IMG/VR virus record: IMGVR_UViG_3300021375_000006
DNA length: 64,000 nucleotides
Direction: 5' to 3' (one strand)
From: a virus
Lineage: Duplodnaviria; Caudoviricetes
In this document: piece by piece, positions 16,704-57,738 of the stretch
How the letters are laid out: each line of letters opens with the position of its first letter
How positions within the stretch are numbered: position 1 is the stretch's first letter
Program-made: the position numbers and the translations under genes
Notes under the pieces: generated by a model
Database searches by the model: none
The model's input: only the letters and a program-made list of their open reading frames with translations
Told to the model about the DNA's origin: nothing

Positions 16704-17060
16704 TTATCTTAAATTTACTTGGATTGTGTACTCATTATTTACAGTAATGTCTACATAACAAATATCTCTAACTTCACCTTTGAAAAACTTAACATCTACT
16801 GACGTATCGTATTTTCTAGAAAGGGGTACATAATTAGATAGTTGTTTTTCAATCTCGTTTCTAATTTGGAATTCATTTTGGTTTAAACTATACACCAAAT
16901 CTTCTAAATTACATCCAAAATCAGGTTCACCTAATACATCATTCTTTCTAGTAAAAAGAGTATTCTCGATCTGTACCAATAACTGCTCTATCTCACCGTT
17001 GTTTTGTACAACATTTGTTTGATAGTTAGGGTCACCTATATGTTTAATGTAAAAATCCAT
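16704..17060 (-). CDS. Baseplate wedge subunit gp25/gpW-like
   Basis: 118 aa with LFTRKNDVLGEPDFGCNLEDLVY, the typical GPW_gp25 signature. Confidence 0.85.
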   Translation of the reverse strand: MDFYIKHIGDPNYQTNVVQNNGEIEQLLVQIENTLFTRKNDVLGEPDFGCNLEDLVYSLNQNEFQIRNEIEKQLSNYVPLSRKYDTSVDVKFFKGEVRDICYVDITVNNEYTIQVNLR

Positions 17061-36075: not shown

Positions 36076-36138
36076 CTAATATGCAGGCTTCCAGGGTTTA
36101 ATCCAATATTCCCAGAAAATTTGTTTTGCCTTTCTCAT
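36076..36138 (-). CDS. Trp-rich 20-aa micro-ORF MRKAKQIFWEYWIKPWKPAY
   Basis: The ATG overlaps the upstream stop (TAATG); TAG at 36076-36078; fills an otherwise empty gap. Confidence 0.5.
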   Translation of the reverse strand: MRKAKQIFWEYWIKPWKPAY

Positions 36139-36755
36139 TAGTATTCAAATGGAGGTGCTTCACCGTCTTGTTCCATACCGTACCACGTACCTTTATGTTC
36201 CCAGTAGTACCATCCGTATTTATCATCGATAACTACTTCAAACTTACCCTTCGGCAGCTCTATGGACTTCTTAGGCGCTCTTGCAATATACTTAAGTACT
36301 GGTACTCCATCGTCCCAAGTCTTTTTAGTAGATCTAGCATCTACACCAACACCACCGTCTGAATAAGCCATGTGGTATTCTGCGCCTTGAATCTCTTGGG
36401 CTAACATCATAGTAGGAGTTGCGTCTGACTCATTGATAACCGACTCAGCCATTTCTCTCTTATATACTTGTTGTAACTCTTTGAATTCTGCTTTTAGTTT
36501 AGAACCAATGGTTTTCTTAATACCCCAATAGTCACCAAAAATAAGTGGAGCTACTGCGCCCATTCCAGCTTTCTGAACCTGGTTAGCGTATTTTCTAGCA
36601 TAGACAGATCTATCAAACCAGTCTAATGCAGCTTGGGCCATTTCCTTTGAGATCTTCTGACCTTCAATTTCGGAAGTTGCACCATTGGCTACCATCTTAA
36701 ATAGTTTTTTAGCTGGAGCCTGTCTTGCTTCGTTAAGTGGTTTAATGTATTTCAT
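36138..36755 (-). CDS. Putative head-internal protein with MKYIKPLNE leader (205 aa)
   Basis: N-terminal leader plus internal ESVINE junction. Confidence 0.6.
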   Translation of the reverse strand: MKYIKPLNEARQAPAKKLFKMVANGATSEIEGQKISKEMAQAALDWFDRSVYARKYANQVQKAGMGAVAPLIFGDYWGIKKTIGSKLKAEFKELQQVYKREMAESVINESDATPTMMLAQEIQGAEYHMAYSDGGVGVDARSTKKTWDDGVPVLKYIARAPKKSIELPKGKFEVVIDDKYGWYYWEHKGTWYGMEQDGEAPPFEY

Positions 36756-37433: not shown

Positions 37434-39194
37434 TTATGCTTCAATTTTTTCGCGTAGTTCTACGTTGTGGAATAATATACCATCAGCCATATAGACATCT
37501 TCAGTTTCTACGTCAATTGAATATGTATTAACAGTTTCCGTAACATACTCAGTGCTGGTTACCTCTACCCACCCATTTGCAGTGTAGAATGAATCTCCAA
37601 CTATAACATCAGCTGCCTGCTTAAACGAAATATCATTACCAACACTCATTATTAGGATAGGGTGTTCACCAGTTACCTTTGTTAAACCGTTATTAAAGTT
37701 ATGATATGCAGTATGCTGACCTGCGATTACCCTAGTAACGGTTGCGCTACTTGAGCTAGCTGAGAATTGATTAATTTGACTTGAGTATTCTTCCCAAGTT
37801 GATTCTGTTTCATCATCGCCTAACCCTGTAATATCATAAGAAGCTAGAACGTCACCCACTTGCAGATCTTCTACTAGTTTAGTTGTACCATCAGCCAAAT
37901 TCATTACTGTACCTTCTACGTGACATGGTCCCCAATCAAAGGAGATGGTGTCTACACTAGCCGAATTCAATGTAAAACTACTATCTGGGGTAAAATCAAT
38001 ACTTAAAGCCTGACCGCCATTCTCATTATTAACTCCATCTGTGATATAAGCAGATACCGTTCCATTAAACACATCAACTGAGTCAATATATGAACTAGCA
38101 GGACTATCTGGGTTTTCTACATTGAAATATATGTAGTTCCCATTACTATTAGTCGCGGCTATATTTACATGACTCGCGCCATTCCAATTGTAACTAGCAG
38201 TTACCACTCCAGTACCTACCATCGGATTTGGTGGGCCATTAGGATAACTTAACGAAGTAAATTCAAAATTAAATTCAGGTACCGGCGCTGTTGTCGTCGT
38301 TATAGATGAATTAGGAGCTGTAATTAAAACAGAACACCAGTGGCTTGTATCATCTGGGTGTCTAACAATTAAATAAATTTGATTATACCCTAGACCTATT
38401 CCTGGAGATGCTGCTTGTGTGCTAGCACTCTCTTCTGTATAAGGTGTATTTCTAGAAAGACCACCTGAATTTGGATCAACGTGGTCATAAGAAACCTGTA
38501 CCTGTCCAGTAATCGGAGCATTATTAACTGTTAAATTTTCAATCCAATATGGATTGGGAGTCGACTGGTGGTTAGAATCATCCGGTTTTGTAGTTGACCA
38601 ATATACATCATTATCTTTTACTAAAGTTGCATCAGGGTCTAACGCAAAAGTATATGTTGTTGAGATATTTGGCATTTGTAAGCTATTATTATCACTATAT
38701 TCACTACCTCCTTGGCCAGAAATATGTTCACTTACAACAGTAGCGTTAGTGGACGTTAATAAAATACTATTTAATGGAGCGTTCGTTGTCGTTGTTTGTT
38801 CTATAGTTGTCGTTGTTTGATCTATAGTAGTCGTTGTTTGATCTATAGTTGTCGTTGTTTGATCTATAGTTGTCTGTGGTGTCGTTGTTTGAGCTATAGT
38901 TGTCGTTGTTTGATCTATAGTTGTCGTTGTGACTGTACCATCCCCAGTTTGTGTAATAGTAAAACTATCTACTAGCGTATTATCGTTAACCCAGTTCCAA
39001 TGTCTTACTTCCCATTGAGAGGTTCTAGTCACACCAGTATCGTTATCTTGAATAGCAAAGTCTGATGTACCTGTAGTTACTGTATCAGATCTTGTGATCC
39101 ATGATACACCATCCACATTAACCCATGTAAAATTTGGATTTGATGTAGTATTATTTCCTGTATAAGTAACAGATCTTTGAATTGTTGAAGGCAT
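37434..39194 (-). CDS. BACON-like / Thr-rich / Hint-domain protein (586 aa)
   Basis: N-terminal SWIT...N..G..R...FTITQ, QTTTTID repeats, C-terminal CHVEGT...TGEH...ILFHN Hint domain. Confidence 0.8.
   Translation of the reverse strand: MPSTIQRSVTYTGNNTTSNPNFTWVNVDGVSWITRSDTVTTGTSDFAIQDNDTGVTRTSQWEVRHWNWVNDNTLVDSFTITQTGDGTVTTTTIDQTTTTIAQTTTPQTTIDQTTTTIDQTTTTIDQTTTTIEQTTTTNAPLNSILLTSTNATVVSEHISGQGGSEYSDNNSLQMPNISTTYTFALDPDATLVKDNDVYWSTTKPDDSNHQSTPNPYWIENLTVNNAPITGQVQVSYDHVDPNSGGLSRNTPYTEESASTQAASPGIGLGYNQIYLIVRHPDDTSHWCSVLITAPNSSITTTTAPVPEFNFEFTSLSYPNGPPNPMVGTGVVTASYNWNGASHVNIAATNSNGNYIYFNVENPDSPASSYIDSVDVFNGTVSAYITDGVNNENGGQALSIDFTPDSSFTLNSASVDTISFDWGPCHVEGTVMNLADGTTKLVEDLQVGDVLASYDITGLGDDETESTWEEYSSQINQFSASSSSATVTRVIAGQHTAYHNFNNGLTKVTGEHPILIMSVGNDISFKQAADVIVGDSFYTANGWVEVTSTEYVTETVNTYSIDVETEDVYMADGILFHNVELREKIEA
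38785..38930. repeat. 21-bp coding tandem repeat (QTTTTID x ~6)
   Basis: Unit tctatagttgtcgttgtttga, repeated with few variants. Confidence 0.9.
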
Positions 39195-39547: not shown

Positions 39548-41629
39548 TTATAGTGTTTCAATTTGGTTATCCTTCATCCACGCCTCTAGCTTCTCAACAG
39601 CTGCGTTAAATATTCTGCTTCTAGAAGTTTCCATACCGAAGTTATTGAAGTATTCTTTCATTAGATAATAAGCTGGTTCGATTGACTCGCCGTTCGCTTG
39701 CATATCTCTAATATGTTTACTAACTTCTAGTGCAGCCATCGCACCTTGCCAAAAGAACATAGTGTAACCAGTTATATCATTCCAGAATCTTTGAATAAAT
39801 TTGTAACCCATTTCACCGAACTCTTTCTTACCTTTATTATCATAAGCATACAGTTCAGATCTAGTCTTGTTGTCGAAAGACCCTAACCAAATAGACATAT
39901 AGTGGTGTTCACCTTTATAGACTTTATCCATAAAACCACCATCAATAATCTCTTTTGATTTTACTTTAATCCATTTTGGAAATTTAATCTTACCGTTCTC
40001 TTTAACCCAATTGTCATACTCATAAGAGCCTAGGCTTTCGTTAACTACTGATTCACTAAATAGAGTTTCTCCAGTACTAGACTCAATACTTATTACAGCA
40101 TTAGGATATTCTTTCTGTAATTCATTAAATACTGCAGGAACTGCTGCTGGAGTTTTTACTAACTCTTGTTTAACAACCATACCACTATTAATTACTACAA
40201 TACTTACAGGATAACTTCCTTTCTTTGCAGCTTTATGGATTGCACCTCTTTTAGCTTCATGCAGTGGTTTAATGTATTTCATTTGTTTTGACTCTTTCAT
40301 AGCGTCTATTTCTTTTGATTTTTCAATTGCCCAATCAACACCTTCGTCGCCACCCCAGATTAACCAGGCTACATAGCCATTATCTTTCCAAGGTTCGTCT
40401 TTATGTTCTGGTGCAATTGATGAATTTTTTCTGTGTCTATTAAATGCAGACATTCTCTTTACAGTATCTGCTGAGATCTTTTCACCTTTAGCTAGTTGAT
40501 GAGCTCTTGCCCAACCAACCGGAGTTCCAGCAGGTACTTCATCTCTACCATACTTCTCTTTCCAATCAATAGCCATTTGTGCATTCTTCTTTGCAGCGGC
40601 TGGATAATCATCATAAGAGTCTTCTTCGTTTAATACAGATTCTTTAAGATCCATATCAAGTTCTTTACTAATTTTCTTTAGATCTTTATCATTATCGTAG
40701 AATACTTTGACCCATTCAGGCTGTTGACTCTGAGGTCTCGATACAGGTATATAGTTAATTTGAACATACTTGTCACCTCTTCTAGTTTGACCATACTCAA
40801 CACCTAAATGCTGATAAACCTTTTTCTTTTCAAGGCTATCTTTAGCATTATCTAAATAATCACTATCTATAGACTCTGGTAAAGGTATTGAATCTTCGTA
40901 TCTTAGTTTTCTATATAGTTGATTAGATAGAATATAGTTACTAGCGAAATCTTCTAGCTCTTTTTCACTACCAAACCTATGACCACCTTTATCAATATCA
41001 TGTCCTTTATAGTAAAGGTTGTAATGAGCACCTCTTGAATCCTCTTTAGTTTTAAGATAGACTATCTCATCATTACCAATATATTTCTTTGGCATCTTAG
41101 CTTCATTAACAGATTCTTTAATAATGTTATCTAAAACTAGTGAATGATAAATGTCAGAACCTACACCACTTAGATCTTCACTGCCTAAATGTTTATTACC
41201 ATACTTCTTAATGTAATTATCCTCTAGGTATTCAATCTTTTCGTCTTTAGACATTCTATTAATCTTGGCTCTATTCTTGTAAACCCATTTCTGAAATTCT
41301 AAAAGGAAAAAAGAATTGTAAAGAGGCTCTTGTAAACTCTCATCCATTTTATCAATTAGGTCTTGTCTACCTAATTGTTTATAGACTTCTTTTCTTACCT
41401 TCTCCATTTTCTCTGCGTACTTAGGATCGTCACCTCTATTAAAAACTATTTGTTGAGTTAAAGAACCACTAATCTTCTTTACATCTTTCTTTCTGGTCTT
41501 AATTAACCATGCTGCAAGATCCTTGATACCCAGGTCTTTAAATCTACCTTCGGCATCAGGAGCATCCGAGTGATGAAACTCAGGAGCGCCTTTCGGCTTC
41601 TTTTCGTTAAGTGGTTTTATGTGCCTCAT
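39548..41629 (-). CDS. Multi-module head-internal polyprotein candidate (693 aa)
   Basis: MRHIKPLNE leader; junctions ESLQE, ESVNE, ESVLNE, ESKQMKYIKPLHE, ESVVNE. Confidence 0.6.
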   Translation of the reverse strand: MRHIKPLNEKKPKGAPEFHHSDAPDAEGRFKDLGIKDLAAWLIKTRKKDVKKISGSLTQQIVFNRGDDPKYAEKMEKVRKEVYKQLGRQDLIDKMDESLQEPLYNSFFLLEFQKWVYKNRAKINRMSKDEKIEYLEDNYIKKYGNKHLGSEDLSGVGSDIYHSLVLDNIIKESVNEAKMPKKYIGNDEIVYLKTKEDSRGAHYNLYYKGHDIDKGGHRFGSEKELEDFASNYILSNQLYRKLRYEDSIPLPESIDSDYLDNAKDSLEKKKVYQHLGVEYGQTRRGDKYVQINYIPVSRPQSQQPEWVKVFYDNDKDLKKISKELDMDLKESVLNEEDSYDDYPAAAKKNAQMAIDWKEKYGRDEVPAGTPVGWARAHQLAKGEKISADTVKRMSAFNRHRKNSSIAPEHKDEPWKDNGYVAWLIWGGDEGVDWAIEKSKEIDAMKESKQMKYIKPLHEAKRGAIHKAAKKGSYPVSIVVINSGMVVKQELVKTPAAVPAVFNELQKEYPNAVISIESSTGETLFSESVVNESLGSYEYDNWVKENGKIKFPKWIKVKSKEIIDGGFMDKVYKGEHHYMSIWLGSFDNKTRSELYAYDNKGKKEFGEMGYKFIQRFWNDITGYTMFFWQGAMAALEVSKHIRDMQANGESIEPAYYLMKEYFNNFGMETSRSRIFNAAVEKLEAWMKDNQIETL

Positions 41630-46611: not shown

Positions 46612-46824
46612 TTACAAACTATGGCCAATTTTTTCATGTAATCTTTTCATGTGCTTACATGGAGAGTATGACCTGAAACTTCTTGCCGGACATTCACAGT
46701 CCACAATTTTGTAATCCGTCACTTTGACGTTATAGTATTTGAGCTTTCTAGTCTTCTTGTCTCTGGAACCCATTTCTCTGTAGTACCACGATGTACCTTT
46801 TGGATGTGTGTAGAAATCTGTCAT
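46612..46824 (-). CDS. SWIM-type zinc-finger protein (70 aa)
   Basis: CECPARSFRSYSPCKH (CxC-xn-CxH). Confidence 0.7.
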   Translation of the reverse strand: MTDFYTHPKGTSWYYREMGSRDKKTRKLKYYNVKVTDYKIVDCECPARSFRSYSPCKHMKRLHEKIGHSL

Positions 46825-47126
46825 TACGCTTCTACTCTATCGTGAACAGGAATCGGCGCATCGCCAGGGAATCTTGAATCTGAAGTGTAAACGAAGTTAC
46901 CACCCATCATAGAATGAGTATTAGATTTTACAAGTGATGCAGGTTTTGCATACCAAGCAGGTTTACCAAACAAATTTCTTTTGATTAAGACGAGTGAATC
47001 GTTTGGAATAGAATCCAAATCGTCAGTATCAAAATAAAGATCGAAGTTATCACCTACTGAAGTCAAACCATTGTTAGTACAGTCTCCGAGTGGGTGTCTA
47101 AATGGGAAAGTTAAAATTTTGTTCAT
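46824..47126 (-). CDS. Hypothetical early protein (100 aa)
   Basis: ORF directly downstream of the promoter repeat. Confidence 0.7.
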   Translation of the reverse strand: MNKILTFPFRHPLGDCTNNGLTSVGDNFDLYFDTDDLDSIPNDSLVLIKRNLFGKPAWYAKPASLVKSNTHSMMGGNFVYTSDSRFPGDAPIPVHDRVEA

Positions 47127-47219: not shown

Positions 47220-47678
47220 TTAGAAATCACCAGGAGCAACTTGCATACAAGTTAATCCATTATCTCTCCACATATCGACTACTTTCTGTCTGTCATCAAA
47301 GACACAGATAATATCGTTCTTGTCAGTGAAAAGTTGGTCAAACCACATTTGCTTAAGCTTGTCATCAGGCATGAACATGAAGTCCTTACTTGTAGGTCTC
47401 ATCTTCAAAATGTCAAATGGCACATCAAACTTTTTCAACCAAGCTCTAGTAGCGTCTTTGGTAGCTTTACTTCTACCAGACAAGATGATAATTCTATGGC
47501 CAGCAGCTTTAAGAGTCTGAGCCATTGCAATTACACCATGGTTAGGTTGGTCAAGATCGATGTTCTTAGGATCGAAGAATACATCCCAGTCCATCTTGCC
47601 GTTTGGCTTCTTAGAAATCTGTCTCCTATCATCGATAAGAGCAAGAGTTCCGTCAAGATCAAAAATTACGTTTTTCAT
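47220..47678 (-). CDS. HAD phosphatase, T4 PNK (PseT) 3'-phosphatase-like
   Basis: IFDLDGTL, LSGR, MRP, FDDRQKVVDMWR...CMQVAPGDF. Confidence 0.85.
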   Translation of the reverse strand: MKNVIFDLDGTLALIDDRRQISKKPNGKMDWDVFFDPKNIDLDQPNHGVIAMAQTLKAAGHRIIILSGRSKATKDATRAWLKKFDVPFDILKMRPTSKDFMFMPDDKLKQMWFDQLFTDKNDIICVFDDRQKVVDMWRDNGLTCMQVAPGDF

Positions 47679-48211: not shown

Positions 48212-48673
48212 TTAGGGTTGTAAATAATTTAATATACTTTTCCAATCTGGAAATGAATCACTTCCAAACTGAATTAACTCACCACTGAATTCACCAGCTC
48301 CATTCTTAGTTCTATCATCGATGAGGTAGTCGCCCATGTTTAGGTTTTTATTATGAGACAGAATAAGTCTCTTGTAAGCTCCTTCACCTAGGTACTTGTC
48401 AACCCACAATCTTTTGTGCATCCATGCCGATGGGTTTTCCCATGGCGCAGTACTTAAGATGTAGCAATCATATTTGTCTGAGTTGACAAACTTATTGAAT
48501 GCATCTATTGCACCTTTCATTGGAGGTGGGTCTAAAAAGAGTGCAGGCATCTGATCTACTAGATCTAATTCCTCTGCTCTCTTAATTGCTTCTGGAGGGT
48601 ACTCGGCTATTTTAGCTGCTAGATCTACTAGCACACCATCCATATCAAAATATATTATTTTCTTATTCTCCAT
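48212..48673 (-). CDS. 5'(3')-deoxyribonucleotidase (NT5C family HAD)
   Basis: YFDMDGVLVD, LSTAPW, LSHNKNL, YLIDDR. Confidence 0.85.
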   Translation of the reverse strand: MENKKIIYFDMDGVLVDLAAKIAEYPPEAIKRAEELDLVDQMPALFLDPPPMKGAIDAFNKFVNSDKYDCYILSTAPWENPSAWMHKRLWVDKYLGEGAYKRLILSHNKNLNMGDYLIDDRTKNGAGEFSGELIQFGSDSFPDWKSILNYLQP

Positions 48674-48872
48674 CCTTTGACTTTATAGTAGCTTTTGTAC
48701 CTGGAAATAAAATGTAATACAAGAGCATTAAGCCAAACATTTGCCATGGACTAACAGGATTAGCCCAAGTAACTGCTTCAGTTAAAACAACATTCCATAA
48801 GTAGGTTGCTGTTAAAACAGCCAAAGGTACTGCTAAAAAAATAATTAGTAGTGGTCCGATTAAATTCTTCAT
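48663..48872 (-). CDS. Small membrane protein (69 aa)
   Basis: Two hydrophobic helices; downstream of the promoter repeat. Confidence 0.65.
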   Translation of the reverse strand: MKNLIGPLLIIFLAVPLAVLTATYLWNVVLTEAVTWANPVSPWQMFGLMLLYYILFPGTKATIKSKDGE

Positions 48873-53710: not shown

Positions 53711-53868
53711 TCGCTTTCAGATTTAGATTGTCTTATTTCACGAACCTGTAAGGACTCTAGTTTAGCTTTTCTTTTCTCAGCTACAGTCTCACGTTTGTTC
53801 TTTGCTTCCATTGCGTCGGCAATTCTCTTAAGTTGTTTTGCTATTTCGCTAGCTGTCTTTTCGTCCAT
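53707..53868 (-). CDS. Small coiled-coil protein (53 aa, MDEKTASEIAKQLKRIADAME...)
   Basis: Hand-translated; its TGA overlaps the dnaJ GTG start. Confidence 0.6.
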   Translation of the reverse strand: MDEKTASEIAKQLKRIADAMEAKNKRETVAEKRKAKLESLQVREIRQSKSESE

Positions 53869-54103
53869 ATCTATTCTTAATTAAATCTGACTTGCCATTT
53901 TGAAAATCTTGATAAGGTAATGACTTATCCTTCTCTTCCTTATGAGGGCCATTAACCATTATAGTATCTTTATATGGATTTGTTTCAACGCCCTGATCTT
54001 CTAACCAGGTCATCATATCCTTTACAGAACCTTTAAATTGTCTAATTCTTTCTAGCTCAGGGTGGTCTGTAGCGAAGTCTTCAAATAGTTTAATATGCTT
54101 CAT
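53849..54103 (-). CDS. Putative head-internal protein, MKHIKLFEDF leader (84 aa)
   Basis: Leader motif; coupled to the upstream gene. Confidence 0.55.
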   Translation of the reverse strand: MKHIKLFEDFATDHPELERIRQFKGSVKDMMTWLEDQGVETNPYKDTIMVNGPHKEEKDKSLPYQDFQNGKSDLIKNRYGRKDS

Positions 54104-54546
54104 TAGTCTAGGCTTCCGTATTTACCTGAGGACATATCTTTACCAAATTGGTCAATCGCCTTAGTTCTATAGTCAATATATGCTGGATCTTCGTGGTGAT
54201 TTTTACCACCAGCCCCAAAGTAAGAGTTAAATCTATATGAAGTAATTGCGTCACCCTTTTCTTTAAAAGCCTTTTCCATATCTTTAACGATCTTAATAAT
54301 CTTTCTCTTCTTCGATGAGTTAATAGGTCCTTTAAACTTCTCACTATCTGGCGCAAACGAAGAAGTACTACTAGTTACTTTAACGTATTCTAGAGTTTCT
54401 GGCGCATTTTCAATTAGCTTAATAAAGTCTTTTAGGTTATCTGCACTACCAGCCCAAGAAGACTCTATCTTCTTACCATTAATAGTAGAGTAGGCCATTT
54501 CGACCTTCTCGTTTAAAAATCTGTGATATGGTTGGATATGTTTCAT
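54103..54546 (-). CDS. Putative head-internal protein, MKHIQPYHRFLNE leader (147 aa)
   Basis: Leader motif plus GATATATAA 4 nt upstream. Confidence 0.55.
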   Translation of the reverse strand: MKHIQPYHRFLNEKVEMAYSTINGKKIESSWAGSADNLKDFIKLIENAPETLEYVKVTSSTSSFAPDSEKFKGPINSSKKRKIIKIVKDMEKAFKEKGDAITSYRFNSYFGAGGKNHHEDPAYIDYRTKAIDQFGKDMSSGKYGSLD

Positions 54547-54549
54547 AGG

Positions 54550-54558
54550 TTATATATC
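54550..54558 (-). promoter_or_regulatory. Late-type motif GATATATAA
   Basis: Between the sRNA terminator and the MKHIQP gene. Confidence 0.55.
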
Positions 54559-54561
54559 AAT

Positions 54562-54598
54562 AAAAAAACCCGCGGAAATACTAGATTTCCTACGGGTT
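54562..54598 (-). terminator. Rho-independent terminator
   Basis: AACCCG..GGAAAT/ATTTCC.CGGGTT stem plus T7. Confidence 0.75.
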
Positions 54599-54636
54599 CA
54601 TTTCGGGGGCCCGCACTTCCGTTATGGATGTGCGTT
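54562..54636 (-). ncRNA. Candidate small structured non-coding RNA (~75 nt)
   Basis: Own GATATATAA motif at 54640-54648, GC-rich hairpin 54612-54634, terminator hairpin plus U7 at 54562-54598, no usable ORF. Confidence 0.5.
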
Positions 54637-54639
54637 AAG

Positions 54640-54648
54640 TTATATATC
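54640..54648 (-). promoter_or_regulatory. Late-type motif GATATATAA upstream of the candidate sRNA
   Basis: Followed by a non-coding structured segment. Confidence 0.5.
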
Positions 54649-54944
54649 TAACAAACTCGCTCTAAAATACGTTCTACCTTTTCGAGTTCGGTTTTTAGTA
54701 CTCCACACTTCTCATATTGCTCTAGGTCAATAAAGTGTTTCGTCATATAAACAATAGTTTCTTTCAATTGAATTACCTCTTCTGTTTCCATGTGGCGTAT
54801 GTGCCAATCAGAGAGACCATTCTCTTTAATGTTATTGTAGTTCTTCTCGATGGCTTCCTCAATCATAGCGTTCTTATACGCCTCCATCTTCTGTTCGAAT
54901 TCTGGATCGTTTAGGTAGTCATCAATGTTAAAGTCATCATTCAT
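54648..54944 (-). CDS. Small protein with C-terminal UVR-like motif (start revised to MNDDF)
   Basis: HFIDLEQYEKCGVLKTEL. Confidence 0.6.
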   Translation of the reverse strand: MNDDFNIDDYLNDPEFEQKMEAYKNAMIEEAIEKNYNNIKENGLSDWHIRHMETEEVIQLKETIVYMTKHFIDLEQYEKCGVLKTELEKVERILERVC

Positions 54945-54945
54945 A

Positions 54946-55077
54946 TTAAGCAAATGTAATATTATCAGATTTGAATGCCATTTTGTATTCGTGAACTAAG
55001 TATTCAGCTTCGTCCACTGTTTCGGCCGTGTCAATTACCTCTCGGCCATAGGTTGAATCGTAGAAAATTTCGTACAT
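54946..55077 (-). CDS. Small early protein (43 aa, MYEIFYDSTYGREVIDTAET...)
   Basis: Hand-translated; first gene after the promoter repeat at 55091-55154. Confidence 0.65.
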   Translation of the reverse strand: MYEIFYDSTYGREVIDTAETVDEAEYLVHEYKMAFKSDNITFA

Positions 55078-56561: not shown

Positions 56562-56801
56562 TTAAGTCATCCAACCGCCAGATTCTTCCCAGTCTTTATG
56601 AGAAGATAGCATTGAATATGCCTCAAAAGAAAGTGTTACTTCAACATAACCCCCGGTTATAGATTGGGGACACTTAGACTCGCTTAGGTACCAGTTAGGT
56701 GCATCTTTAATCCTACCATTCAAAAAATCAAATAGTGGATCTATGTGCATGTGGTGTACCCATATATTGATATGCATACATGTCATGTTTGCTTTACCCA
56801 T
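56562..56801 (-). CDS. Hypothetical protein (79 aa)
   Basis: ORF track. Confidence 0.55.
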   Translation of the reverse strand: MGKANMTCMHINIWVHHMHIDPLFDFLNGRIKDAPNWYLSESKCPQSITGGYVEVTLSFEAYSMLSSHKDWEESGGWMT

Positions 56802-57726
56802 TTTCTACGCTAAATCTTTTTTTGTCAAAGTTAATTGTACTTTTAATATCTTTCTTTTGGTACATATCTATCTGTTCGATTTCAGATGATTGTAATTTTT
56901 TACCGTAATGCTCTTGATAGACTTTTTTATAGATAAGTGCCATAACACCATAGAGAGGAGCAAACTCTGAAGACATTTCCACTACCCATGGTTTCCCATC
57001 TGTATCAACCATTAGGTCTATTGAGTATATGTCTAAACCTTCATGTGCCTTATTCATTTCCTGAAATACTTCATTCCATTCCTTTGGCATTTTACTAAGA
57101 TCTTTTAACACATACTTAAAGAATAGCTTGTCTTCTTTTTTCTTTGTCATCTCTTTGGTCTCCTTGTTACCATGTACTCTTTGTACCCACATAACAGGTT
57201 CACCTCTCCACATCATTATTCTGTGTTCTTCATCGATGTCTATCTTCTCGCTGAAGACTTCAAAGTCAGAAAGGTCCATATCATTAGCTTTTCTAAGGGT
57301 ATCTATTTTAATAATACCTTGGCCCGAATATCTGTTATCGGGTTTCGCTATGATAGGGAACTTTAACTGATCTAAATCTTTTGCATCTGAAACTGTCTTT
57401 GGCACATGTTTAGAATCTTTGTGAGTCTCATGCCATTTTACTTTCGATGCGATTTCCATCTTCTTCTCCTTAGGATTATAGATTAGGTCTTTAGGAGTAC
57501 CCGCATCTAATAGTCTTTTAGTGTGGATATTACAAAAGTTAATCACAGGCATATCAGACTTAAATGGCTGATCGCCCTTCGTAAAGAGTTGCATAAAATT
57601 TCTAGTGTGTGCAGATTTATCTGTTACATACTTAAAGTCTGTAAGCTCTGTAGATACACACATAACAACTTTGTGCAGTTCTCCATTTTTCTCGTTAAGA
57701 AATGTTTGGAAATCTTTAATTTTCAT
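56794..57726 (-). CDS. ATP-grasp ligase (RimK-like) with head-targeting-type leader
   Basis: FPIIAKP...SGQGI, EKID...EHRI, SIDLM...VVEMSS; N-terminal MKIKDFQTFLNE; late motif upstream. Confidence 0.75.
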   Translation of the reverse strand: MKIKDFQTFLNEKNGELHKVVMCVSTELTDFKYVTDKSAHTRNFMQLFTKGDQPFKSDMPVINFCNIHTKRLLDAGTPKDLIYNPKEKKMEIASKVKWHETHKDSKHVPKTVSDAKDLDQLKFPIIAKPDNRYSGQGIIKIDTLRKANDMDLSDFEVFSEKIDIDEEHRIMMWRGEPVMWVQRVHGNKETKEMTKKKEDKLFFKYVLKDLSKMPKEWNEVFQEMNKAHEGLDIYSIDLMVDTDGKPWVVEMSSEFAPLYGVMALIYKKVYQEHYGKKLQSSEIEQIDMYQKKDIKSTINFDKKRFSVENG

Positions 57727-57729
57727 AGA

Positions 57730-57738
57730 TTATATATC
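57730..57738 (-). promoter_or_regulatory. Late-type motif GATATATAA
   Basis: 3 nt before the ATP-grasp ATG. Confidence 0.55.

Follow-up and report, generated by a model that had tools for sequence, protein, structure and literature searches.

Capsid-targeting sequences (CTSs) and the proteins that phage T4 loads into its head with them, among them the enzyme Alt, are textbook knowledge, and the ten-residue T4 tag suffices for both head loading and delivery to the next cell. To our knowledge, Alt is the only enzyme among the T4 cargo of this sort, and it rewires host transcription at time zero. The tag reads MKTYQEFIAE and is removed once by the head protease, and proteins fused to it stay in the head (PMC8442874). 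Every internal head protein of T4 uses a CTS propeptide, these propeptides span 10–20 residues, and gp21 cuts Alt at ITE-6 and LTE-619 (PMC5694885). Here we analyse a stretch of 64,000 nucleotides (nt), hereafter the window, from IMG/VR record IMGVR_UViG_3300021375_000006 (Caudoviricetes), which belongs to an uncultured, T4-related marine jumbo phage. A gene on its minus strand (56794–57726) encodes a predicted ATP-grasp ligase that begins with a peptide of the T4 type.

ATP-grasp enzymes have been described in phages before. The R2K enzymes are predicted modifiers of host proteins in jumbo phages (Burroughs 2015 PMC4431377; Iyer 2021 PMC7824862), and a putative RimK, with a suggested effect on host translation, has been described on contigs of marine T4-like phages (Monier, Claverie and Ogata 2008, PMC2530865). 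For the carrier protein LysW, the C-terminal EDWGE is read by the GSWGR loop of the ligase (PMC10433800). In the literature we found neither a paper linking a capsid-targeting tag with an ATP-grasp enzyme nor a report of an ATP-grasp ligase in a virion, and a 2026 review of jumbo phages makes no mention of CTS-type cargo. From the comparisons below we propose, with a probability of roughly 55% for the whole chain, that the ligase is synthesized late, loaded into the head, cut after Glu12 and ejected with the DNA.

Results

The ligase gene is an open reading frame (ORF) with an ATG start (56794–57726 with its stop codon), and the 310-amino-acid (aa) product begins MKIKDFQTFLNE. Codons 1–12 (57691–57726, minus strand) make up the T4-CTS-like leader, with a putative cut after Glu12 (L-N-E|K). 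The ligase leader and the T4 CTS have the pattern [YF]-Q/E-x-F-[IL]-x-E in common, which reads F-Q-T-F-L-N-E in the former and Y-Q-E-F-I-A-E in the latter. As in CTS cargo, the peptide is of 10–20 residues, resembles MKTYQEFIAE, ends in (L/I)-x-E and lies off the fold. In structural alignments with ArgX, LysX and RimK, model residue ~18 pairs with residue 1 of the solved chains, which marks the first 17 residues as added to the fold. The tripeptide [LIV]NE occurs once in the ligase, at the end of the leader.

In relatives down to 40% identity, Glu12 is invariant and Phe9 nearly so, and residues 13–16 are variable. The leader persists in representatives at ~25–35% identity (MKRIKLFEQFIAE in P0118, and MKYLKLFEQFINE and MRLKTFEQFVNE in others), and P0111 starts MKYIKLFEEFLNE. 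A loose form of the motif is present within the first 25 aa of 50 of the 124 divergent full-length representatives, compared with 7.5% of internal 25-aa segments. The ligase bears the leader at all 18 loci examined, save for start-call artefacts and fused forms. Given that the leader codons of orthologues differ synonymously, selection acts on the leader peptide. The adjacent HAD gene served as a negative control and has no conserved leader; its leader-like MKREIKFNE was rejected because orthologues do not conserve the N-terminus.

The same peptide is found on several unrelated proteins of the window, as would be expected of CTS cargo. A 147-aa protein (54103–54546, minus strand) has the leader MKHIQPYHRFLNE and its own GATATATAA box (54550–54558) and putatively belongs to the same cargo set, and the neighbouring 84-aa protein (53849–54103, minus strand) has a leader-like start, MKHIKLFEDF. 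Elsewhere in the window, a modular protein of 693 aa (39548–41629, minus strand) combines the leader MRHIKPLNE with ES-V-x-N-E linkers and an internal MKYIKPLHE, and a 205-aa protein (36138–36755, minus strand) combines the leader MKYIKPLNE with an internal ESVINE linker. The six frames of the window together contain four E[ST]x[VIL][NT]E motifs, and three of these fall in the last two proteins. In its strict form, the leader stands at the N-terminus of 2 of 74 ORFs in the window (p=0.009). A 212-kb relative record, G002, whose ligase is 73% identical to that of the window, has it on 9 of 257 ORFs, compared with 0.46% of internal segments (p=3.7e-6).

Copies are also found inside fused proteins. 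In P0129 and P0176 the ligase follows a module that corresponds to the first one of the 693-aa leader protein of the window, and in P0198 a 230-aa module and KKIKNFNQFLNE precede the ligase. P0116 is a tandem ligase with an internal IKTLEHFIFE, and in P0162 and P0163 the ligase is followed by IMNFESFSLNE and IMRFEQFNLNE, respectively, and then by a further module. Because internal copies occur in such polyproteins, a translation-start artefact can be ruled out for the leader. An aliphatic-N-E rule is common to the leaders, the linkers (ESVVNE, ESVLNE and ESVINE) and the N-terminus of the capsid protein. An initial annotation made from the DNA letters had suggested a packaging leader on this gene, and the likeness to the T4 CTS, the invariant Glu12, the N-terminal enrichment and the portability of the peptide all argue for that suggestion.

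The fused ligase forms have no Pfam domain other than ATP-grasp at E≤0.001. In three of them (P0136, P0165 and P0191) the ligase is joined to a C-terminal domain of ~280 aa with the pattern ...C-T-(I/V)-V...KNRDRS...YYTDQTGWIEGMNE, again with no Pfam match at E≤0.001. We take this domain to resemble Cys-Ntn (N-terminal nucleophile; C45-type) hydrolases, and the two parts may form a ligase/amidase pair that writes and erases a modification. Residues 342–474 of the 693-aa protein match phrog_2859, a family of unknown function (E=8e-13), and the first module of this protein (KKPKGAP..HHSDAPDAEGRFKDL...) recurs fused to ATP-grasp ligases elsewhere in phages.

Head machinery of the T4 type is present in the relatives. 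Peptidase_S77, the family of T4 gp21, exceeds its curated cut-off in 8 of 10 ligase-bearing IMG/VR records and in 0 of 14 control genomes, and the two records without it are fragments that are 32–34% complete. The head genes of G002 (L051:6729-11187, plus strand) stand in T4 order, with the portal followed by a 122-aa protein, a protease-scaffold protein and a gp23-like capsid protein. The acidic 122-aa protein occupies the gp67/68 position and starts MKVIKTIEAFAKE. The protease (PF03420) and a long scaffold-like region of extreme acidity form one fused protein of 820 aa, and as a query the protease finds 2763 relatives. The capsid protein bears LINE|S and GINE|S at its N-terminus and matches the gp23-type capsid proteins of PTm1, Lak phages and T4-like cyanophages. 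G002 also has two adjacent ATP-grasp genes, both of which bear the leader. Elsewhere in the same record, a 114-aa protein (L046:5799-6143, plus strand) with the leader MKHLKSLKEFLNEE has sub-threshold matches to GNAT acetyltransferases (best 21.7 bits) and is a candidate for a further enzyme cargo.

A late-type promoter box, GATATATAA (57730–57738, minus strand), lies 3 nt upstream of the ligase ATG. The window contains 12 copies of the (G)ATATATAA box, every one on the coding strand and entirely within intergenic DNA, which amounts to 2,836 bases or 4.4% of the window. Shuffled intergenic segments contained a mean of 1.2 and a maximum of 7 ATATATAA copies in 2000 trials. Among the other genes preceded by the box are a baseplate-wedge gene (16704–17060) and a 'virion structural protein' gene (37434–39194), and the box is kept upstream of the ligase orthologues in L003 and L007. 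The late box of the initial annotation is thus a real feature of the window, and since it precedes virion genes we infer that it acts late.

The distance between box and ATG falls into two ranges, 0–5 nt in 6 of the 12 copies and 18–26 nt in five. The close-spaced copies lie upstream of the genes ending at 17060, 20973, 42652, 51742, 54546 and 57726, and such a short distance points to late mRNAs with little or no leader, or to a motif with a second role in translation initiation. In the DNA preceding the gene for the 147-aa leader protein (54546–54650, minus strand), two GATATATAA boxes (54550–54558 and 54640–54648) flank a G+C-rich hairpin and a T run, an arrangement that looks like a short transcribed unit or a terminator–promoter junction. 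A second, longer upstream element (TTTTCGTATATTAGTACTGTAATTAAAA and near copies) is found before four small genes (46824–47126, 47220–47678, 48663–48872 and 54946–55077, minus strand) and is probably a promoter of another class (early or middle).

The window has 35% G+C, and its minus strand holds nearly all genes. Its likeness to cultured phages at the DNA level is weak (Tenacibaculum phage PTm1, Sphingomonas phage PAU and Prevotella Lak phages), and the genes it has in common with these phages are limited to capsid and other structural genes. Cultured or deposited phages contain a single relative of the ligase, at 33% identity in an uncultured 462-kb record, and marine metagenomes contain 113 close relatives on contigs of up to 254 kb. 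Among 1.84 billion cluster representatives, 151 relatives were found at E≤0.001. Searches with the ligase gave only sub-threshold ATP-grasp matches in Pfam (YheCD, R2K_3, TTL, Ddl-C and R2K_2), only families of unknown function in PHROGs, and 0 families at E≤10 in NCBIfam. In the ESM Atlas its neighbours are virus-only ATP-grasp clusters, several of them labelled RimK-type by Pfam.

An AlphaFold2 (AF2) model built from an alignment of 24 relatives is of high confidence, with a predicted local distance difference test score (pLDDT) of 90.8 and a predicted template modelling score of 0.87, and pLDDT drops below 50 only at residues 1–4 and 10–13. The model has the three-domain ATP-grasp architecture (pre-ATP-grasp, RAGNYA and kinase-like). 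Foldseek matches it to Ddl, LysX/ArgX, synapsin, PsnB and RimK at E of about 1e-11 to 1e-9; ArgX/LysX are nearest, with scores equal to or above that of RimK, and Ddl is close behind. A 35-aa helix with conserved D293, T297, R304 and F305 forms the C-terminus. The isoelectric point of the ligase is 8.2, and the charge of the mature protein is uninformative.

Catalytic residues were assigned from the classical ATP-grasp set listed by Burroughs et al., with the ligase aligned to Ddl and an L-amino-acid ligase. K95 is the linker Lys, K128 the Lys of RAGNYA strand 2 and S134-G-Q-G-I138 the Gly loop, and E167/R169, D237 and E250 complete the set. K95, K128, the SGQGI loop, E167, R169, D237 and E250 are invariant across the 24 relatives, and they are retained by 111–113 of the 114 family representatives (K95 in 111, K128 in 112, G137 in 111, R169 in 112 and D237 in 111). 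The ExN motif reads E250-M-S252, and its third position is Ser in the ligase and in all 24 close relatives, compared with Asn in 105 of 114 representatives. Polar replacement of this Asn is known in ATP-grasp enzymes (PMC4431377). Apart from the ExN motif, the intact motif set claimed by the initial annotation is corroborated by the confident fold and the conserved catalytic residues, and the protein is probably an active ATP-grasp amide-bond ligase.

The initial annotation had also called the ligase RimK-like. The term is fair for the fold, given that the model is RimK-like in structure and has RimK among its matches. It does not hold for family membership, because no RimK model matches the sequence: PF08443, the RimK (S6 glutamate ligase) family, gives no match even at E≤10, and membership by sequence was rejected. 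Some distant members of the ligase family do reach PF08443. Membership in the R2K clade was also rejected, given that the ligase keeps the linker Lys (K95) and the ssxGbGl loop (SGQGI), both of which are absent in R2K. Position 132, the second Lys/Arg site of R2K, is Arg in the ligase subclade only and Gly in 73 of 114 representatives. R2K_3 (PF14243) scores 23.6 bits on the ligase against a cut-off of 26.3, and R2K_2 scores 15.1 bits. Two family members, P0191 and P0257, match the sugar-transfer-associated ATP-grasp model PF14397 (34.5 and 47 bits, respectively). The ligase family is phage-restricted, and the solved structures closest to it are those of ArgX/LysX and RimK, which ligate to protein C-termini. 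Because these are its structural neighbours, a protein carboxylate is the most plausible substrate.

Directly downstream of the ligase is a conserved, leaderless ORF of 79 aa (56562–56801, minus strand), which overlaps the ligase stop by 8 nt and is translationally coupled to the ligase through the ATGGGTAA overlap. It is kept in this position in 10 of 18 loci, at ligase identities down to 34%. The order HAD, ligase, 79-aa ORF, exonuclease and Hsp20 is kept in 10 loci, and the order glycosyltransferase (GT)/sulfotransferase, GT25-hydroxylase, HAD, ligase and 79-aa ORF in 8–9 loci. A second clade has the ligase, leader included, flanked by thymidylate synthase and phosphoesterase genes, and there the 79-aa gene is missing. 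The 79-aa protein has 19 invariant columns, which include C8, H16-H17-M18, FDFLN, R30, GG and W71, and its AF2 model (pLDDT 71) shows a small alpha/beta body and a floppy C-terminal tail. Family and fold searches with this protein returned no match. By the motifs that define LysW, we rejected a LysW-like identity for it: only a single Cys is invariant, the protein does not end in Glu, its tail varies, and the loop of the ligase is SGQGI. It is a likely partner of the ligase and may act as a partner proper, an inhibitor or a substrate. About 5 kb from the ligase is a genuine phage bS21 gene (PF01165; 51826–52026), with exonuclease, Hsp20 and DnaJ genes between the two.

Discussion

The proposed chain of events runs as follows. 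The ligase would be transcribed from a (G)ATATATAA box of the kind that also precedes virion genes, and would thus be made late in infection. Residues 1–12 would serve as a capsid-targeting sequence of the T4 type, by which the precursor docks on the scaffolding core of the prohead, and the gp21-type head protease of the phage would then cut after Glu12 (L-N-E|K). The resulting 298-aa enzyme would remain in the head after filling and would leave it together with the DNA, in the manner of T4 Alt and the internal proteins. Once in the new cell, it would draw on host ATP to join an amino acid or amine to a carboxylate, which most plausibly belongs to a protein; this chemistry is suggested by the fold and the conserved residues. 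The initial annotation had proposed an enzyme that is delivered with the DNA and modifies ribosomes or other host proteins. Its first part, delivery, appears to be the best-supported reading, because the leader behaves like a capsid-targeting and cleavage peptide of the T4 type; a ribosomal target is unsupported.

Several points weigh against this chain. The ligase gene lies amid non-structural genes and adjoins genes for fibre-modifying enzymes, and its tightly linked 79-aa neighbour is leaderless, as would suit a function in the producing cell. The gp21-type protease comes from the records of relatives, not from the window's own genome. With only 3 nt between box and ATG, the promoter geometry is unusual, and the Ser at the third ExN residue of the ligase subclade could alter metal binding.

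The alternative that survives best, although we consider it unlikely, is that the ligase is a late cytoplasmic enzyme that is never packaged. It would work in the producing cell and might, for instance, add an amino acid to a carboxylate on the 79-aa partner or on the glycans or collagen-like fibres that the products of the nearby HAD, GT25-hydroxylase and sulfotransferase genes handle. Its N-terminal motif would then have some other shared purpose, such as docking, folding or turnover. The gene order from GT/sulfotransferase to the 79-aa gene in 8–9 loci fits such a role, as do the PF14397 matches of P0191 (34.5 bits) and P0257 (47 bits) and the leaderless partner. However, synteny with the fibre genes is confined to one lineage, and the thymidylate synthase/phosphoesterase clade keeps the leader. 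The fibre-modifying neighbours themselves have no conserved leader, whereas the ligase leader is a match to the T4 CTS with a protease-type site at its end, and it recurs within polyproteins as a boundary.

The evidence from the leader and the protease would apply equally if the ligase were loaded and cut but worked in the assembling head or on phage proteins, for example by tagging core or internal proteins, instead of in the next host. The Cys-Ntn-hydrolase-like fusions in P0136, P0165 and P0191 would suit such a role, since they suggest a write/erase pair that could act on phage cargo. We nevertheless regard it as quite improbable, given that a sealed head has no obvious ATP supply and that the precedent for a CTS-tagged enzyme, T4 Alt, acts in the newly infected cell (PMC5694885).

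Still harder to credit is the idea that the 79-aa neighbour is the acceptor substrate, either a LysW-like carrier or an S6-like tail protein, with a flexible acidic tail (..KDWEESGGWMT) that the ligase would lengthen. An 8-nt overlap couples the two genes tightly and they occur together in 10 loci, the small alpha/beta body of the partner model ends in a floppy tail with a conserved W-[ED], and the best structural matches of the ligase, ArgX/LysX, were solved with LysW. Yet the partner lacks the four-Cys zinc site and the C-terminal Glu, the end of its tail varies, it has no fold match and it is absent from the other clades. Likewise, the loop of the ligase is SGQGI and not the GSWGR that reads the EDWGE of LysW (PMC10433800).

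Least credible of all is the remainder of the initial annotation, an injected RimK-type glutamate ligase that tags host bS6 (or bS18) and, in a three-part system with phage bS21 and S1, reprograms Bacteroidota ribosomes: the idea is attractive since the phage carries bS21, but it remains a guess, given that PF08443 has no match at E≤10 and NCBIfam no family, that ArgX/LysX score at least as well as RimK with Ddl close behind, that the bS21 link is synteny in one lineage at a distance of ~5 kb and is absent in other clades, and that no result bears on bS6.

A broader and more tentative picture can also be drawn, to which we would give clearly less than even odds. ATP-grasp ligases may be a standard mobile module of the head cargo in T4-related jumbo phages of the sea. 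A tag of the T4 type would load them, the head protease would free them, and after injection with the DNA they would attach peptide or amino-acid tags to host proteins before phage gene expression, with a controlling hydrolase-like domain or a small leaderless partner in some lineages. Provided that the proposal holds, the ligase would be the first case of a phage injecting a protein-ligating enzyme, and the cargo would include ATP-dependent amide ligation, a chemistry not known from any virion. Its target should then already be modified in the first minutes of infection, which would give a handle on the function of this ATP-grasp family. If the tag works as it does in T4, sequence would directly reveal the injected cargo of a whole group of marine phages that is large and abundant but uncultured.

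Compared with described ATP-grasp systems, the ligase stands apart in several respects. The putative phage RimK reported in 2008 aligns over its full length with E. coli RimK, and its description mentions no leader, whereas the ligase of the window reaches no RimK model. The R2K clade (CDC123, R2K.2/DUF4343 and R2K.3) is similar in that it comprises phage-borne ATP-grasp enzymes with weak Pfam similarity to the ligase, but the ligase has the linker Lys and a classical loop, and the second Lys/Arg is mostly Gly in its family. Identity to the RimK/LysX/ArgX group (PDB 3vpb, 5k2m, 3vpd, 5zct and 4iwx) is only 10–14%, and the ligase differs from these enzymes in its SGQGI loop in place of GSWGR, E-M-S in place of ExN, an extra 12-aa leader and the 35-aa C-terminal helix.

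The closest parallel for the proposed delivery is the gp21-processed CTS cargo of T4 (IPI, IPII, IPIII and Alt). Both systems have a short N-terminal peptide of the same pattern that ends in aliphatic-x-Glu, and in both the tag is common to unrelated proteins of one phage. The relatives of the window have a Peptidase_S77 protease, a gp23-type capsid protein and a T4-like order of head genes, and Alt provides the precedent for a head-carried enzyme that acts on host proteins at injection. In contrast to T4, the carriers here are marine Bacteroidota-type jumbo phages, the putative cargo is an ATP-grasp ligase, and the tag is also used as an internal linker in polyproteins.
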